In this document: piece by piece, positions 40,927-46,570 of the stretch
Layout of the letters: the number at the start of each line of letters is the position of its first letter
How positions within the stretch are numbered: position 1 is the stretch's first letter
Origin: Minisyncoccia bacterium
GTDB lineage: Bacteria > Patescibacteriota > Minisyncoccia > Phycocordibacterales > CALRBL01
Reading direction: 5' to 3'
Assembly (NCBI GenBank): GCA_038227435.1
Contig: JBBRPW010000001.1
Span: forward strand, 9,632-73,631
Length of the DNA stretch: 64,000 bases
The notes under the pieces: model-generated
Told to the model about the DNA's origin: nothing
The model's input: the letters and a program-made list of their open reading frames with translations, nothing else
Database searches by the model: none
Translations under genes and position numbers: made by a program

Positions 40927-41676
40927 ATGTTTGAAAAATATCTTCAAGAATTAGGATTATCCGATAAGGAGGCAAGTGTATATATTTCACTTCTCCAGGT
41001 AGATAACGACTCAGTACTCGATTTGTCTAAAAAAACAAAAATTAATAGAACCACTATCTACCCAGTCCTTGAAAGCTTGGCCAAAAAAGGTCTTATTAGC
41101 GAAGCACAAGTTGATAAAAAGATTAGATATCACGCCGAACCACCCGAACGATTAGAAACATATGTTGAGCGGCAAAAAACAATGCTTCAAGAGCATTCAA
41201 ATCGATTAAAAGATGTAATTCCTCAGTTAAAAAGTATTCAGAGGGAAACTGGGGAAAAACCAATGGTTAAGTATTTTGAAGGTAGACAGGGTGCGATCAG
41301 TTCTCTTGAAGAGTTTTATAATTCAATCGGAAAAGGTGGCACTGCATATTTAATTTATCCAAAAGATGCAATAAAAAATATCTTCAATGAAAAAGAAATT
41401 GAAAAATATCGATCAATACGCCTTAAAAGGGAAATAAAGACAAAAGTAATAAGTACTTCGTCAAAAAACGACATAATTTCTGATTCAACAGGTAATCGAA
41501 TACAAATTGACGGAGAAAAGTATCCCATCACTTCGGATATTGCTATTTACGAAGATAAAGTAAGGGTTACTATTTTGGGGAAGTCTTTAGCAGCATTTTC
41601 AATAAAGAGTCAGGATCTTGCTGATACACTTCGTAGTTTATTTGATTTGGTATTTGATCTATCAAAAAATAAATAA
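40927..41676 (+). CDS. TrmB-family HTH transcriptional regulator.
   Basis: N-terminal LGLSDKEASVYISLL...INRTTIYPVLESLAKKGLI winged-helix region typical of TrmB. Confidence 0.6.
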   Translation: MFEKYLQELGLSDKEASVYISLLQVDNDSVLDLSKKTKINRTTIYPVLESLAKKGLISEAQVDKKIRYHAEPPERLETYVERQKTMLQEHSNRLKDVIPQLKSIQRETGEKPMVKYFEGRQGAISSLEEFYNSIGKGGTAYLIYPKDAIKNIFNEKEIEKYRSIRLKREIKTKVISTSSKNDIISDSTGNRIQIDGEKYPITSDIAIYEDKVRVTILGKSLAAFSIKSQDLADTLRSLFDLVFDLSKNK

Positions 41677-41696
41677 GAGACTTATATAATAAAAGA

Positions 41697-41738
41697 TACC
41701 CCGATCGCACAACGTGCTGCGATCGGGGTATTTGGTTT
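41697..41738 (+). terminator. Rho-independent terminator ACCCCGATCGCAcaacgtgcTGCGATCGGGGT + TTTGGTTT.
   Basis: 12-bp perfect GC-rich stem followed by a T-rich tail. Confidence 0.6.
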
Positions 41739-42326
41739 AGACCCCGTGGTCTTTTACTCCGAGAACGATAAGGTATTGCCCTTCGCGTTCTCGAACGATT
41801 TCATTGGCCTACCCCTCGGGGTAGAAAATAAGGTGTGTTTACTAGTCAGACATACTATTTTTCCTTCGGTCGGGGTTCTCTCTAACAAGGTTTGGATTTT
41901 GAGGACAGCTTTTAGCTACTAGTCCCAGCCAACAGCCGATTCGGGCGCTGTTGGCTGGGACTTTCACTTTCGGCTAGTCGCCCATATTACCTCCTTGTTA
42001 AGGTTCGGGAATCGTTCATAAGCAAGAGCGCTAATGAATTTCCAAATAAAATTTAGCATAATAAAATTGGTCTGTCAACATGTTTTAACTAAATTGAGTA
42101 TATTTGATCAATTTTATATAAAATAAGGCTATGAATATAGCTTCAATAGTGTTTTTACTTGTTATTGTCGGTTTTTGTGTTTTGACACCTGAAAAATACT
42201 ACAAAACAAATATTTTTTAATGCAATTAATGTAGTTTTATGTCATATCTAATTTACATATATTGTATATAATATCCTTATTTATCAATACTATAATGGAA
42301 TATTAAATTTAATCTGTCATAAACAC

Positions 42327-42354
42327 TTGACAAAAATATAAATATCCGTATTAT
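42327..42354 (+). promoter_or_regulatory. Sigma70-like promoter TTGACA-16 nt-TATTAT driving the island's + strand transcription.
   Basis: Consensus -35 and near-consensus -10 with 16-nt spacing, about 200 nt upstream of the first island ORF. Confidence 0.4.
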
Positions 42355-42478
42355 CTTTCTCAGTTAGAACTTTTCACCTCAACCCCCAAAGAACAATGCG
42401 TTACTACGTGCTCCCCGACGGGACCGTGGTGATCAACCCCTCTGACGCCTACTAAGGCGTTACGGGATGATCCCACTT

Positions 42479-42530
42479 CTGCGGCTTAGGCACGCGGGGG
42501 AATAATGCACCCTGGCAACAGAATCGCATC
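42479..42530 (+). repeat. Repeat family R1, copy a (CTGCGGCTTAGGCACGCGGGG...CCTGGCAACAGAAT), in the 5' leader of island ORF-A.
   Basis: A 21/21 identical block plus a 14-nt block shared with copy b at 43777-43828. Confidence 0.55.
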
Positions 42531-42561
42531 CACTAAAACATCACCCTAATTTTTTACAACT

Positions 42562-42843
42562 ATGAAAAAGATCGTGATCGGAATGATGGTCGTTCTCGCT
42601 CTACTCTTGTCGTTTGTTGCAGGTGTCTTCTACGGCACCAACGCAACTATCGCCAAGATGGAATTGCTGGAAACCCCCAGAGGCCGCATTCTTTACTACT
42701 TCATTCCGAATACATCTGCTTCGACAGAAATTTATTCGCTTGATAGTGGAGAAGATGCTGATCTCTACGAGGATTCAACACAAATTCCTGACGAAGACGT
42801 GACTGAGAGGAAAGACTCTCTGAAGGACGACACTAACCTTTAA
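42562..42843 (+). CDS. Island ORF-A: small membrane-anchored protein with an acidic C-terminal tail.
   Basis: 93-aa ORF. TM helix IVIGMMVVLALLLSFVAGVFYG. The last 14 codons and the stop lie inside repeat R2a. Confidence 0.4.
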   Translation: MKKIVIGMMVVLALLLSFVAGVFYGTNATIAKMELLETPRGRILYYFIPNTSASTEIYSLDSGEDADLYEDSTQIPDEDVTERKDSLKDDTNL

Positions 42844-42897
42844 TTCAAAAGTGTTTATTTTTGCGACCGTTTTAAATGGTTGGTTGGCGTGCAGCGC
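42801..42897 (+). repeat. Repeat family R2, copy a (97 nt), immediately upstream of HHR1.
   Basis: 94 of 97 positions identical to copy b at 45769-45866. Contains hairpin GAGAG-gaaaga-CTCTC. Confidence 0.7.
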
Positions 42898-42935
42898 TAA
42901 GAGAAAACTTTAAATCCTAACTATAAAAAGTTAGA

Positions 42936-42987
42936 TCTGTCTCGAAATGTAATTTCGACTGATGAGCTCTAGAGAGCGAAACAGAAA
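42936..42987 (+). ncRNA. Hammerhead ribozyme, type III topology (HHR1).
   Basis: TCTGTC|TCGAAATgtaATTTCGA-CTGATGA-GCTCtagaGAGC-GAAA-CAGA. All core nucleotides present (C3-A9, G12-A14, A15.1-U16.1, GUC cleavage triplet). Three stems fold as required. Confidence 0.75.
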
Positions 42988-43436
42988 GTACTTTAAAACC
43001 AAGAAAAATAATAAAAGTTAAATTCGTCTGCACTTGAGAGTGTTTTTAAAAATATTCTCACGTGCAGGCGAAAGTAGCGCCAAAGCATGTGATCGGTAGT
43101 ACACATTTAAATCTTGAGTGAGTGTCTCGGATTTAAGTGGAGTTGTACTACGTATTAATTCATCACCAAAAAAATGATTAGTGGGATGTTCTGATTGTTC
43201 TCGTACGCCTCGCGAGAGACCAACAGTCAAAATGTCACATCATTTGAGTAGGGACAAGCAGTTCGTTGCTGTGCACCGAACTTTGATGAATTATGGCTGT
43301 GAACGATCTGAGGTGAGTACCGCAAGGTAACTCAGTTTGATCTAGTAATAGTTATGGGGAAAGCGCATAAGGCTTGGTCGCCAAGTGTGTATTACCTGCT
43401 ACAAAATTTCTAAACCTCAACCAAAAAAGAATTACT

Positions 43437-43772
43437 ATGGCACATTACAGTACTTTTATTTTTCAGTTGCCAGGATGTCCCGAGATTTATATGAGTACTC
43501 GGTACAACATTATTCAGGACTTTGATTGCATTCGAAATAAGTTTGGAAAGGGGTTGATTAAGTTCAAACCTTTCTACAAGCCTGATCGAGTGCAATTTAC
43601 TCCTCCGAGTAATGGAGAAAAGCATCCTTGGGTATTGCTGACTAAATATCAGCGTAGGAAGATTCAAACCTTCCTCAATGTGGTCTACCGAAAGGGAAAC
43701 CACAGGGTACCTCGGAGATGGCGCAAGTTCGTAAAGAACGACGGCGTCTTTCCAAAGGAGTGTCTCGACTGA
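43437..43772 (+). CDS. Island ORF-B: small basic protein (R/K-rich C-terminus).
   Basis: 111-aa ORF from ATGGCACATTAC; no homologue recognised. Confidence 0.35.
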   Translation: MAHYSTFIFQLPGCPEIYMSTRYNIIQDFDCIRNKFGKGLIKFKPFYKPDRVQFTPPSNGEKHPWVLLTKYQRRKIQTFLNVVYRKGNHRVPRRWRKFVKNDGVFPKECLD

Positions 43773-43776
43773 GCAA

Positions 43777-43828
43777 CTGCGGCTTAGGCACGCGGGGTAC
43801 ACATACTACCTGGCAACAGAATTGTATG
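43777..43828 (+). repeat. Repeat family R1, copy b. It follows the ORF-B stop and precedes HHR2.
   Basis: Shares CTGCGGCTTAGGCACGCGGGG and CCTGGCAACAGAAT blocks with R1a. Confidence 0.55.
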
Positions 43829-43857
43829 AAACTGACTAGTAATTATTTACTAGTCAC

Positions 43858-43909
43858 TCTGTCTCGAAATGTAATTTCGACTGATGAGCTCTAGAGAGCG
43901 AAACAGAAA
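43858..43909 (+). ncRNA. Hammerhead ribozyme, type III (HHR2), 52/52 identical to HHR1.
   Basis: Same sequence as HHR1, preceded by the 9-bp palindrome GACTAGTAA-ttat-TTACTAGTC. Confidence 0.75.
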
Positions 43910-44304
43910 TACATTAAAAATAAAATAATTTCTTTACACCTCATCCGGCGTTTATTTGCGGCACGAAAATAACCACGCAAACAAAAAATGTGGAAACCCG
44001 CTAGACGCTGGTTGAGGTGTAATGAACAAAAAATATAGGTTGCTAGTTAACCTGATCCGAGGAGCTCTGGTTTTCCATAAGGAAAACTAAAACTTTCGGG
44101 CTTTAGTGGGGCAAGCAACGTAACGCCGGATGCGTACGTGTGAGGCCAAAAGCACAAAAACTACTTGTTTGCCCAGCTATCGGGGAATAAGCGTCGTTCG
44201 TGGTACGGCGTTATGAGCATAAGTATCAAAATCTCCGAAGCCATTCGCCCTTAAGGGTGAAATGGTTCTAGTGAGGAATTTTGAGAACGTTCTCTAACAA
44301 CCAC
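43910..44304 (+). ncRNA. Roughly 395-nt ORF-free, highly structured spacer between HHR2 and HHR4. Candidate large structured RNA of unknown class.
   Basis: Long-range inverted repeats TTACACCTCA/TGAGGTGTAA and CATCCGGCGTT/AACGCCGGATG. Local hairpins GTTTTCC-ataa-GGAAAAC and CCATTCGCCC-ttaa-GGGTGAAATGG. No ORF over 40 codons on the + strand. Confidence 0.35.
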
Positions 44305-44357
44305 TTTGTTTATCGATGTGTTTCGATACTGAAGAGCTCAAAAGAGCGAAACAGAAG
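44305..44357 (+). ncRNA. Hammerhead-like ribozyme variant (HHR4): CTGAAGA core (position 7 = A), GUU cleavage triplet, short stem III.
   Basis: TTTGTT|TATCGAtgtgttTCGATA-CTGAAGA-GCTCaaaaGAGC-GAAA-CAGAAG. Position 7 is tolerant and U17 is permitted but weaker. Confidence 0.5.
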
Positions 44358-44393
44358 ATCTTTAAATTTCAGCAACTTCAACCCCCTAAAAAA

Positions 44394-44699
44394 ATGCAAA
44401 ACCCATATGGTTCGGAGAAGCAGTTGGAAACCACCGAACAGCAGATCGACCGCCGTGTCGCGCTCAGTGTCCTCGAAGTGAGCTACCATTTTTGGGGCGC
44501 ACTTCGGGGTGGTGGCGAACGGGCCGCTGCGAACCTTTTGAACAGTTTGAAAGGTGCAGCACCACGCGGCTACTACTTCACTGTCTCGGCAGATAGGGAG
44601 TGGCGTCCGCGTGCAAACAAAGACGGAACGTTCGAGTTCCGCCGCCTGTTTCAGCCCCGAACCAACACTGTCGCCATCATCGGATTGGCAAGACGATAG
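44394..44699 (+). CDS. Island ORF-C: hypothetical protein.
   Basis: 101-aa ORF starting at ATGCAAAACCCA, directly downstream of HHR4. Confidence 0.35.
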   Translation: MQNPYGSEKQLETTEQQIDRRVALSVLEVSYHFWGALRGGGERAAANLLNSLKGAAPRGYYFTVSADREWRPRANKDGTFEFRRLFQPRTNTVAIIGLARR

Positions 44700-44719
44700 T
44701 GCCGGAAGGGTTGAAACAC

Positions 44720-44830
44720 ACGTTAAGAGTCACCGTAAAAAACTCTGGTCTGATCCACTAACAACGATCACTCGTTTATCGTATGCGAGCTTCAAAAAAC
44801 GTTCGGGTCCGCCCGTGATAGCGGCGTCGG
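44720..44830 (+). repeat. Repeat family R3, copy a (about 110 nt), followed by hairpin GGGGAAtttatTTCCCC.
   Basis: About 93% identical to copy b at 46431-46540. Some differences are compatible with conserved pairing (AACGA/TCGTT versus AATGA/TTGTT). Confidence 0.65.
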
Positions 44831-44916
44831 TAGGGGAATTTATTTCCCCACTTTATTGAGCCTGTCACATTCGGTGATTGGTTCATCAAGTTCGTTCTTT
44901 TCAAAAAAATAAAAAT

Positions 44917-45330
44917 ATGAAACTTAACGTCAAGGCTATCCGTAGTTTTGTGCTTAGTCAGGTAGTGGACAAGGAAGAGTCAGAAGCACTCATCTTTTAT
45001 TTGGCTGGCATCAATGCCGAATTCTATCTCGTAGATCCTCACACCTGCGGAGAAGAAGCAGGAGAGATTGGCTTCATGGGTTTCAACTTCACCGACAAGG
45101 TGAATGATGCAATGAATGCTGGTCTTTGGGCTGTGATTTACGACGATGGGCGCGATTATGCTTACCATAAGTACTTCCTTTTCGAGGAAGACGCTAAAAG
45201 TTTTGCAAATCGGGTTGGTGGAGGCTTATTGAAGTACACCAACACTGCAAATCGGCTGAAAGTTATTGCCCACTTTAGAAAGTTGGGCTTAATCGAAGAA
45301 GTTCCTGAAGAAGAAGGAATTCTCGAATAA
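44917..45330 (+). CDS. Island ORF-D: hypothetical acidic protein.
   Basis: 137-aa ORF from ATGAAACTTAAC. Confidence 0.4.
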   Translation: MKLNVKAIRSFVLSQVVDKEESEALIFYLAGINAEFYLVDPHTCGEEAGEIGFMGFNFTDKVNDAMNAGLWAVIYDDGRDYAYHKYFLFEEDAKSFANRVGGGLLKYTNTANRLKVIAHFRKLGLIEEVPEEEGILE

Positions 45331-45463
45331 CTTTAAGTCAATTCATATACGTTCTGCATAACGTAAAAAATGTAGCTGTTTTGCTCAATATGCGTGCAAG
45401 AAATTGCATGTCGACATATTGGCTTCTTCAGTGAAAAAAGAAGGTAAGAAAGGAGGATCAACA

Positions 45464-45760
45464 ATGATCATCGACCTTTCTCTTCGTAATGAGCGCCTGT
45501 ACAAGGGTTGCGAAATTACGGAGGTGGCAGGCCGGCTGAACTTGGTTACTCCAGTTGCTGATGCAGTTAATATCGTTGGCCGCAACGCCAATGGGTTGAT
45601 TGCAGAAGTTGCTGCGAGTGATCGGAGCGAAGTCGAGCTTACGGGTCCGATGGCGGTTTGGTCTTACTTGATCGTTTTCCACGCTGTGGTTCACGCCTTT
45701 TCGAAGGTGTACTACAACGATGGGAAAGGTCGGGTACTGATCGCCGCCCACGGCGCCTGA
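45464..45760 (+). CDS. Island ORF-E: hypothetical protein preceded by a strong Shine-Dalgarno.
   Basis: AAAGGAGGatcaacaATG gives a canonical SD at optimal spacing. 98-aa ORF (MIIDLSLRNERLYKG...). Native genes in this window generally lack an SD. Confidence 0.5.
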   Translation: MIIDLSLRNERLYKGCEITEVAGRLNLVTPVADAVNIVGRNANGLIAEVAASDRSEVELTGPMAVWSYLIVFHAVVHAFSKVYYNDGKGRVLIAAHGA

Positions 45761-45768
45761 TGCCATCT

Positions 45769-45866
45769 GACTGAGAGGAAAGACTCTCTGAAGGACGACA
45801 CTAACCTTTAATTCAGAAGTGTCTATTTTTGCGACCGTTTTAAATGGTTGGTTGGCGTGCATCGCT
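45769..45866 (+). repeat. Repeat family R2, copy b, non-coding here, immediately upstream of HHR3.
   Basis: Near-identical to R2a. Confidence 0.7.
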
Positions 45867-45890
45867 GACGGATAGATGTTCTATCCGTCA

Positions 45891-45942
45891 TCTGTCACAG
45901 GGTATTACCTTGTCTGATGAGTTCAAAAGAACGAAACAGAAG
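45891..45942 (+). ncRNA. Hammerhead ribozyme, type III (HHR3), a sequence variant of HHR1/2.
   Basis: TCTGTC|ACAGGGTattACCTTGT-CTGATGA-GTTCaaaaGAAC-GAAA-CAGAAG. Full conserved core. Preceded by hairpin GACGGATAG-atgtt-CTATCCGTC. Confidence 0.7.
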
Positions 45943-45970
45943 ATCTTTCAAAACTCCACAAATAATTTTT

Positions 45971-46204
45971 ATGAATAATCATTCGAAAGAATTGGTATGT
46001 GTTCGAGTGATTAATGTATGCGCATCCATTAAAGGCTCTTTTGGATTAGGTCACTTTATAAAAGTCGATCTGTCTGGAGTCAGTGATTGGTATATATACT
46101 GCTCAAAAACTAAACCAATTGTCGGACAAGAAATTTCCATGTTTCTTACTATGTACGGCAAATGGACATGTCTCGATGACAGAGACAATGTCGAATCATT
46201 TTAG
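45971..46204 (+). CDS. Island ORF-F: small Cys-containing hypothetical protein directly downstream of HHR3.
   Basis: 77-aa ORF from ATGAATAATCAT. Confidence 0.3.
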   Translation: MNNHSKELVCVRVINVCASIKGSFGLGHFIKVDLSGVSDWYIYCSKTKPIVGQEISMFLTMYGKWTCLDDRDNVESF

Positions 46205-46430
46205 TCGAATTAAAACCCTATGATCAACATCATCAAATCTACTCGCTATAAGGTGAGTGGCTTCATTCGTAACTGCGTTAAAAACCCTCGCACGAGCTGG
46301 AAGCTGCGGAAGCAATTGGCTTCTCGCAGCATGCGTCGCCTCGATCGAAAGGTGATCGCTGCAACGGATGTTGAGGAGCATTCGTCGTGTGTCGTATACA
46401 ATAACTTCCTGGGCTATCCGTAGCAAGGAA

Positions 46431-46540
46431 ACGTTAAGAGTCAACGTAAAAAACTCTGGTCTGATCCACCAACAATGATCACTTGTTTATCGTATGCGAG
46501 CAACAAAAAACGTTCGGGTCCGCCCGTAATAGCGGCGTGG
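46431..46540 (+). repeat. Repeat family R3, copy b, ending at the island's terminal terminator.
   Basis: See R3a. Confidence 0.65.
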
Positions 46541-46542
46541 TT

Positions 46543-46570
46543 AAGAGGAACATCAGTTCCTCTTTTTTTA
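46543..46570 (+). terminator. Rho-independent terminator AAGAGGAAcatcagTTCCTCTT + T8.
   Basis: 8-bp stem followed by a T run. Confidence 0.6.

Follow-up and report, generated by a model that had tools for sequence, protein, structure and literature searches.

A predicted stand-alone structured RNA with two Shine-Dalgarno-led mini-ORFs and a start-codon pseudoknot, conserved beside a TrmB-like gene in Candidatus Saccharibacteria

What is the G+C-rich, highly paired segment of about 300 nt that lies directly behind a TrmB-like gene in a 64,000-nt stretch of a Minisyncoccia bacterium genome (contig JBBRPW010000001.1 of assembly GCA_038227435.1, positions 9,632 to 73,631 of the forward strand; hereinafter the window, from whose first letter all coordinates are counted)? 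A first-pass annotation had placed it at 41740-42040, at the left edge of a presumed inserted island, and offered two options, namely a non-coding RNA gene or a terminal structure of the inserted element such as an attachment (att) or packaging site. Our analysis indicates that the segment is the body of an independently transcribed, structured chromosomal RNA of ~350 nt with predicted ends, encoded on the minus strand. This predicted RNA is conserved beside the TrmB-like regulator gene across Candidatus Saccharibacteria and holds two translation-initiation regions, each comprising a strong Shine-Dalgarno (SD) sequence, an AUG 4-9 nt later and an open reading frame (ORF) of 3-7 codons. The identity and anatomy of the RNA we regard as highly probable.

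The composition and foldedness first reported for the segment hold up: its G+C fraction is 0.478 as compared to 0.363 in the window and 0.21 in the spacer to its right, and its fold is more stable than those of dinucleotide shuffles (z = -5.5 on the plus strand and -7.3 on the minus strand), with none of 100 shuffles equaling it. The helices named at that time are likewise all found in their places, i.e., a 16-nt perfect inverted repeat (AGTCCCAGCCAACAGC/GCTGTTGGCTGGGACT, 41921-41936 and 41947-41962), a 14-nt pair with 86% complementarity (CGAGAACG/CGTTCTCG, 41760-41773 and 41780-41793) and a CTACCCC/GGGGTAG hairpin (41809-41824). The features that define the element had been missed, as its promoter, its pair of SD-AUG mini-ORFs and its pseudoknot become visible on the minus strand alone. 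Two further plus-strand proposals fall away: the T-loop-like element (GGTTCGGGAATCG) is a wrong-strand reading of what on the minus strand forms part of the 5′ hairpin and the outer helix, and the short frame GCT AAT GAA ... TAG (42031-42057) overlaps the minus-strand -10 box (42050-42058) and start site and has no ribosome-binding site (RBS).

On the minus strand, a sigma-70 promoter precedes the segment and an intrinsic terminator follows it (Table 1). Their placement predicts an RNA running from ~42043 to ~41686, and the 300 nt originally noted thus constitute its body. The terminator hairpin is bidirectional and is common to the RNA and the convergent TrmB-like gene (40927-41676, plus strand; Pfam TrmB). 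A promoter box of the form TTGAC(A)-N16-18-(TGc)TAnnnT, also written TTGACA-N17-(TGc)TATACT, stands at the equivalent place in 63 non-redundant relatives. We assign the RNA to the minus strand because of this conserved promoter, the excess of SD-AUG sites on that strand (see below) and the numerous G-U pairs in its helices, which on the other strand would be A-C mismatches. In sequence terms, the element displays the attributes of an independent bacterial small-RNA gene: its own promoter, an intrinsic terminator, frames of only 3-7 codons, and conserved sequence and structure. The idea of a non-coding RNA gene therefore survives by virtue of its promoter, terminator and conserved structure, but on the strand opposite to the one described and not as an island-specific gene.

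The relatives were fetched via the TrmB-like protein, yielding 3 loci from GTDB genomes, all labelled uncultured Candidatus Saccharibacteria, and 80 from metagenomes with TrmB-like proteins 45-66% identical to that of the window (individual loci are denoted below by L numbers). The RNA unit is present on the minus strand downstream of the TrmB-like gene in 62 of the 63 non-redundant loci with enough flank, where promoter, strong SD (GGAGG), AUG 4-9 nt on and a frame of few codons follow each other in that order. A search for an empty site turned up only an identical copy of the locus, in the sole contig encoding an identical TrmB protein. The pattern SD-AUG-NNN-GAC-UAR also gave 24 matches in viral contigs, all weak by covariance model (E of 0.05 or worse); we read them as chance and rejected a viral occurrence, the two pattern matches inspected being overlapping gene starts (ATGAATGAC...).

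The mini-ORFs are among the defining features of the RNA. The first site has the consensus aAGGAGGug-N-cY-AUG-nnC-GAC-UAR, with GGAGG conserved at 60-76% per position (52 relatives), the AUG at 100% and the G, A and C of codon 3 at 98%, 80% and 75%, respectively; the second has the consensus aaAGGAG-N5-9-AUGGgcGAC. Across 63 non-redundant RNAs, we counted 124 SD-AUG sites, while the opposite strand has 17 and shuffled sequences yield ~28; at least one mini-ORF is found in 62 of these RNAs and at least two in 38. The in-frame ORFs have a median length of 3 codons, as against 13 in both the +1 and +2 frames, and 101 of 117 frames do not exceed 7 codons. This closure is still seen upon excluding the 3-codon cases, which share the common GACUAR motif: frames of up to 7 codons then account for 41 of 57 in-frame cases as compared to 27 of 98 out-of-frame ones (Fisher p = 1e-7). 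The stops are of all three types (TAA 41, TAG 39, TGA 21). Given the correct SD spacing, the invariant AUG and frame-keeping stops of any type, these sites are readable as cistrons and might well be read as such.

The first mini-ORF lies within a closed long-hairpin domain, which we term module 1. Its architecture, which is alike in single-sequence folds of very different relatives, comprises from the outside in a closing helix (P1), a pairing of the SD region with a pyrimidine-rich strand, an internal loop containing the AUG, a pairing of codon 3 with a downstream GUC, and a long, G+C-rich hairpin (H1). A plain MAFFT alignment of the whole RNA was not structurally meaningful and was replaced by an 8-sequence module-1 seed (A4) and covariance models. 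In the RNAalifold consensus of the seed, 13 of 24 pairs show compensatory changes. Run against the 64 kb of the window, the model built from it (R1) hits once, on the minus strand at 41890-42006 (28.5 bits, E = 7e-4). It matches ~40 loci, and every full-length match lies next to TrmB on the minus strand; a few weaker matches on the plus strand lie over the palindromic H1 stem. In a clean 24-sequence model alignment (A7), 93.7% of the cells are paired and 26 of 31 pairs have changed on both sides; none of 500 shuffles reaches the observed values, and sliding the partners by 1-3 columns lowers pairing to 34-46%. All 17 pairs of H1 covary in the relatives, and the GAC:GUC pairing of codon 3 is 97% paired. 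Thus, the fold is kept in relatives with abundant compensatory changes.

A further interaction involves the start codon. The apical loop of H1, nCAUAg, is complementary to the cUAUGn around the start codon, a pairing that lies outside the model and was read from its alignment. This pseudoknot is 95.8% paired in A7 and 91% paired in a 51-row alignment (A5), and 4 of its 7 pairs show compensatory changes. Its center, AUG:CAU (A-U, U-A, G-C), is essentially invariant, while its flanks covary at three pairs (A-U 8, U-A 6, C-G 3, G-C 3; U-A 16, C-G 4, A-U 3; and G-C 8, C-G 5, U-A 4, A-U 1), yielding matched strands such as CUAUGC/GCAUAG, CAAUGG/CCAUUG, GCAUGU/ACAUGC, UCAUGU/ACAUGA and UUAUGG/CCAUAA.

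For the outer helices, P1 and P2 had been included in a second covariance model, which was abandoned as their register differs between clades; the duplex energies of cognate and non-cognate strands were compared instead. Cognate closing strands average -19.8 kcal/mol as against -15.2 for non-cognate ones, and in 30 of the 39 modules the true partner is placed among the best 9 of 39. In 23 of 38 modules, the 22 nt that come after the GUC pair with at least 4 of the 5 SD bases, as compared to 33% for shuffled strands, and the SD-region duplexes have a mean energy of -13.3 kcal/mol as against -6.9 for shuffled strands. Together, the pairing of the AUG in a pseudoknot with the loop of the 16-17-bp hairpin, the GAC:GUC pairing, the duplex of the SD with the pyrimidine-rich strand and the closing outer helix indicate that the initiation region of module 1 is locked in the predicted fold.

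Table 1. Features of the predicted RNA gene and the neighboring promoter in the window.
Feature	Position	Strand	Details	Basis
Sigma-70 promoter	42050-42078	minus	-35 TTGACA 42078-42073; 17-nt spacer; extended -10 TGcTAAATT 42058-42050	promoter scan
Predicted transcript, ~355 nt	41686-42043	minus	predicted start ~7 nt past the -10 box, to the terminator U-tract	
5′ hairpin GGAAAUUCAU...AUGAACGAUUCC	42008-42043	minus	5′ domain varies between clades	minimum-free-energy fold
Module 1, closed long-hairpin domain	41882-42002	minus	bounded by P1: CUUAACAAGG 42002-41993 with CCUUGUUAG 41890-41882	fold
SD site 1, AAGGAGG	41990-41996	minus	4 nt upstream of AUG1	read from sequence
Mini-ORF 1, AUG GGC GAC UAG (Met-Gly-Asp-stop)	41974-41985	minus		conserved in relatives
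H1	41921-41962	minus	16-bp perfect stem, 10-nt loop GCCCGAAUCG (41946-41937); the helix of the first-pass annotation	
Putative pseudoknot arm	41943-41946	minus	loop GCCC pairs with GGGC 41983-41980 (last base of the AUG and codon 2)	predicted from sequence
Inner-helix 3′ strand GCUAAAAGCUGUCCUC	41901-41916	minus	A-rich bulge, GUC pairing with codon 3 GAC, CCUC anti-SD-like stretch	fold
SD-like site 2, GAAGGA	41862-41867	minus	8 nt upstream of AUG2; weaker than in most relatives	
Mini-ORF 2, AUG UCU GAC UAG (Met-Ser-Asp-stop)	41842-41853	minus		read from sequence and relatives
3′ domain, three hairpins	41740-41824	minus	41809-41824, 41760-41793, 41740-41751; the first two are the CTACCC and CGAGAACG hairpins of the first-pass annotation	
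Intrinsic terminator	41686-41731	minus	14-bp stem 41696-41731, then CUUUUAUUAU	terminator scan and inverted repeat
Divergent promoter TGTCA-N7-TTGACA-N16-TATTAT	42314-42354	plus	drives the island region	conserved in at least 38 relatives

The remainder of the RNA is less uniform: no conserved fold was definable across the relatives for module 2 or the 3′ hairpins, and, in place of the simple 5′ hairpin of the window, many relatives have an alternative 5′ domain of the form GGUGGUGGG...CCCUUAAAAC...GCCACC. This extra domain precedes module 1 on the minus strand (e.g., in L003, L010, L026, L028, L038, L040, L044 and L056) and reads GGUGGUGGG-hairpin-CCCUUAAAAC-N-GAGCCACC. Within H1, the arms in most relatives (A7 columns 53-62 and 86-95) are CUUCCU/AGGAAG or CCUCCU/AGGAGG, which is an SD:anti-SD-like duplex that might pair alternatively with SD1 and the closing strand; the H1 of the window lacks it.

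To the right of the RNA gene, the region formerly viewed as an island (42300-46570) has a G+C content of 44-47%. It contains three hammerhead type III-like ribozymes on the plus strand (42934-42987, 43856-43909 and 45889-45942), which score 40-42 bits, i.e., just under the Rfam gathering score of 48.5, and a fourth, degenerate copy at ~44306-44360 with CUGAAGAG in place of CUGAUGAG. The same kind of hammerhead array is seen in L003 (2342-2396 and 2927-2986), L014, L021, L026, L043 and L045, and hammerhead cores follow the divergent promoter in at least 20 of 64 loci, for which only 1.5 kb of flank was available. The small ORFs of the region have no Pfam match and little else to characterize them; the window's proteins have no match in the other loci, and an all-against-all comparison of 102 ORFs from the loci yields no family larger than 4. 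No direct repeats bracketing the region were found. On account of these hypervariable ORFs, the lack of bracketing repeats and the conserved divergent promoter, we interpret the locus as a conserved one in which a constant part, to which the RNA belongs, is joined to variable cargo.

Several other elements of this region merit mention. A TGTCA...TGACA inverted repeat overlaps the -35 box of the divergent promoter and is conserved in at least 38 related loci; it resembles an operator, perhaps one serving the TrmB-like regulator encoded alongside. Directly after this promoter and before a G+C-rich leader, there is a putative 19-codon ORF (MRYYVLPDGTVVINPSDAY, 42396-42455, plus strand). At the start of the divergent transcript, some loci show a second conserved structured motif without an Rfam match (~2838-2905 on the plus strand of L023, and also in L009, L019, L022, L029, L039, L041, L053, L066, L031, L072 and L076), which is a ~70-nt hairpin whose outer stem is CUUCCACUU/AAGCGGGAG, whose inner stem covaries and whose conserved loop reads GCCCAGNNAUUAUCGC; in the window, there is no more than a reduced look-alike, at ~42470-42510. 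Of three pairs of direct repeats inside the island, those at 42479-42529/43777-43827 (51 nt, 82% identity) and 44720-44832/46431-46543 (113 nt, 92%) look like structured RNAs with no Rfam match, and the one at 42800-42898/45768-45866 (99 nt, 97%) duplicates the 3′ end of a 93-aa ORF and the region downstream of it. Three ORFs without an SD share a CCUCAACC(C/A)-A-rich motif 10-20 nt before the ATG (~42372-42395, 43413-43436 and 44371-44393, plus strand); two of them lie shortly after a hammerhead copy, and such leaders are unusual in this genome, where strong SD sites are otherwise in use. A 98-aa protein (45464-45760, plus strand) shows a weak Csx3-like match (PADLOC, E = 3e-4). In the equivalent region of L003 (3041-4657, plus strand), a 538-aa protein matches PHROG 850, 'RNA-binding protein' (E = 5e-38), and was taken to be a Ro60/TROVE-like protein. 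The cargo of the locus thus seems centered on RNA. The latter protein also raised the idea of a Y RNA, which we rejected as neither the window nor the other loci encode the protein, whereas the RNA is present everywhere.

What might such an RNA do? Our best guess, toward which we lean with some caution, is that it is a riboregulator that would engage ribosomes at structurally gated mini-cistrons; the mechanism of that engagement, taken by itself, we see as an even call. We envisage that the 30S subunit would load only on nascent or transiently opened RNA, and that loading would compete with the closed, pseudoknotted fold. The nascent stage would last until the loop (~40 nt downstream) and the closing strand (~90 nt downstream) are made. 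The RNA could thereby report or modulate initiation capacity, its output being its own conformation or stability, and in its open form it might be a sink for ribosomes or peptidyl-tRNA in the manner of a minigene.

Several observations weigh against this proposal. The closed fold should inhibit initiation, the three-residue peptide has no obvious function, and no gene lies downstream that could be regulated in cis. In mini-ORF 1, all conserved bases apart from the stop have a pairing partner, and constraint at the RNA level could by itself explain much of the conservation. The masking of the SD appears frequent rather than universal, its core pairing being partial in the modules analyzed (at least 4 of 5 bases in 23 of 38), unlike the near-universal masking of the AUG. 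In the window itself, the register of the pseudoknot is shifted relative to the family (GGGC:GCCC rather than UAUG:CAUA, with the loop GCCCGAAUCG), and a search for a pseudoknot in module 2 found no consistent partner. The transcription of the RNA, its ends and its translation are predictions, and the linkage to TrmB may be an ascertainment effect given that all the loci were obtained via this gene.

The main rival, to which we give distinctly less credence than to an RNA that engages ribosomes, is an untranslated structured RNA that serves as a scaffold or decoy for proteins or ribosomes. Here, the GGAGG, AUG and UAR would be structural or recognition elements, such as an internal mimic of SD:anti-SD and codon:anticodon pairing for a ribosome-associated factor. 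That the conserved fold pairs the AUG and codon 3 along with much of the SD region accords with this, as do the SD:anti-SD-like duplex of the H1 arms (CUUCCU/AGGAAG in most relatives) and peptides too short to act as proteins. However, a purely structural motif need not preserve a reading frame, and the in-frame stops are kept at a variable distance (3-7 codons) using all three stop codons, with the other frames not closed and the SD-AUG spacing at a canonical 4-9 nt at both sites. A bolder reading, which we hold to be improbable, is a hitherto undescribed kind of ribosome-targeting regulator. Each module would be an internal replica of the RNA contacts of the 30S initiation complex, with the SD paired to an anti-SD-like strand and the AUG to a CAU loop, and the RNA would toggle between closed and ribosome-docked states, serving the ultra-small bacteria of the candidate phyla radiation (CPR) as a sink, a brake or a sensor for initiation on a global scale. 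If so, it might also favor translation of the SD-less, hammerhead-processed messages next door. Still more doubtful is a cis-acting leader or antisense regulator of the convergent TrmB-pgk-tpi unit, wherein read-through at the shared terminator, and with it antisense transcription into the TrmB-like gene, would be under the control of the mini-ORFs. The convergent layout with its shared bidirectional terminator, the tight linkage to TrmB across relatives of 45-66% protein identity, and an order of short ORF, hairpins, second SD and terminator resembling that of translation or transcription attenuation leaders are all in keeping with it. Yet, strong terminator hairpins lie at least 100 nt beyond mini-ORF 2, no alternative antiterminator pairing was found, and the above-noted ascertainment could account for the linkage. 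A classical leader-peptide attenuator or riboswitch was rejected, for the RNA runs into its terminator and then the 3′ end of the convergent gene, without a regulated downstream gene.

Two further identities concern what the RNA belongs to. A highly divergent housekeeping RNA, i.e., transfer-messenger RNA (tmRNA), RNase P, signal recognition particle (SRP) RNA or 6S RNA, that standard models missed would be typical in its size, strong promoter and high G+C in an A+T-rich genome, and GAAAGUCC-like strings occur in the window and L001. Against it, the RNA has no tRNA-like end, and its core, an SD-AUG-mini-ORF pseudoknot, is unlike any of these RNAs; the GAAAGUCC strings are at non-homologous positions with no model match, on which ground the RNase P idea was dropped. 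The first-pass annotation had found no tmRNA, SRP RNA or RNase P motifs, and searches with all families of Rfam 15, including 6S, and with ARAGORN agree. At the gathering threshold, Rfam reports only four tRNAs in the whole window; at E values up to 10, it finds nothing credible in 41400-42800, only low-scoring small-RNA and miRNA models far below their thresholds and an alpha_tmRNA match at 42423-42534 (E = 0.027; 15.7 bits vs a threshold of 50), which falls within the leader of the island, rightward of the element, and was treated as chance. In 21-22 relatives (E up to 0.1 or 0.01), the element has no match, the only ones elsewhere being tRNAs and hammerheads. ARAGORN detects no tRNA or tmRNA at the element and no tmRNA in the window or 60 related loci, and neither ribozyme models nor the hammerhead core (CUGAUGA ... 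GAAA) match the element, with hammerheads being confined to the plus strand of the island. We accordingly deem a housekeeping RNA very improbable; the RNA is nevertheless host-encoded. Least probable of all is a terminal structure (att, packaging site or end repeat) of an inserted genomic island, as had been suggested at first. The element does border a 4.3-kb region of higher G+C (44-47%) with hammerheads and orphan ORFs. However, the RNA has its own promoter and terminator and adjoins the TrmB-like gene in ~60 divergent Saccharibacteria loci whose neighboring regions have no genes in common, being kept whatever the cargo, which also removes its specificity as the left edge of an island. No direct repeats bracket the region, the sole spanning pair being an 18-nt match of 89% inside the flanking genes, and a scan of island ORFs showed no integrase among those covered. 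Moreover, the divergent 'island' promoter is itself conserved in the relatives, and hence the region is a conserved variable locus rather than a recent insertion. We thus infer that the RNA is not part of a mobile element.

The RNA lies outside all catalogued RNA families, and we found no prior description of it in literature searches; there is a real chance that it represents a new class of ribosome-directed RNAs. A strongly promoted and deeply conserved RNA in a tiny Saccharibacteria (TM7) genome is likely to have an important role; according to a transcriptome preprint on strain TM7x, that organism is without validated small RNAs (bioRxiv 10.1101/2022.03.25.485537). The design of the RNA is unusual in that it has twin three-codon cistrons, one of whose start codons is held by a covarying pseudoknot, and lacks a gene that it could regulate in cis. 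The constant RNA beside a hypervariable, hammerhead-punctuated cassette array would make this a conserved RNA-centered locus in CPR bacteria that is open to experiment. If ribosomes do engage the RNA, it would offer a natural chromosomal case of minigene-like or initiation-sensing control.

Minigenes, such as bar of phage lambda and synthetic two- or three-codon versions, trap ribosomes and release short peptidyl-tRNAs. Likened to them from sequence alone, the mini-cistrons have an SD at functional spacing, a start codon, very few (in minigenes one or two) sense codons and an in-frame stop; they differ in that there are two of them, set inside a conserved pseudoknotted domain of a stand-alone chromosomal RNA with deep conservation. 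A minigene has also been described as a regulatory element in a toxin-antitoxin operon (PMC8708949). With leader-peptide and translation-attenuation leaders (trpL, ermCL, cat), the RNA shares a short SD-led ORF, hairpins and a second SD downstream. In leader-peptide attenuators, the position of the ribosome decides the folding of the RNA. Here, in contrast, no structural gene lies downstream, another mini-ORF takes the place of the second cistron, a terminator closes the RNA, and the frames have 3-7 codons without a run of regulatory codons. Like tmRNA, it is a predicted stable structured RNA with a short internal frame next to pseudoknots, but it has no tRNA-like domain and would use canonical SD-AUG initiation instead of trans-translation. 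In the intergenic-region internal ribosome entry sites (IGR IRES) of dicistroviruses, the hairpin loop of pseudoknot I (PKI) pairs with a codon, imitating the tRNA-mRNA pairing. The pairing of the invariant CAU loop with the invariant AUG is comparable to this as a resemblance of shape only; the present element has an SD and a much longer stem, the bases flanking the CAU are paired rather than in an anticodon-loop geometry, and its binding of ribosomes is hypothetical. RNA thermometers, SD-sequestering pseudoknot riboswitches and folded type I toxin mRNAs (e.g., aapA1; PMC6733600, PMC5416894) similarly hide the SD and start codon by local or long-range pairing, possibly with co-transcriptional control, but they gate a real protein-coding gene, whereas the gated frame here has three residues. 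By analogy, the RNA would work most like minigenes, leader-peptide RNAs and RBS-masking switches, and it departs from their defining features in having no regulated gene and in carrying its mini-cistrons inside a stand-alone pseudoknotted RNA.

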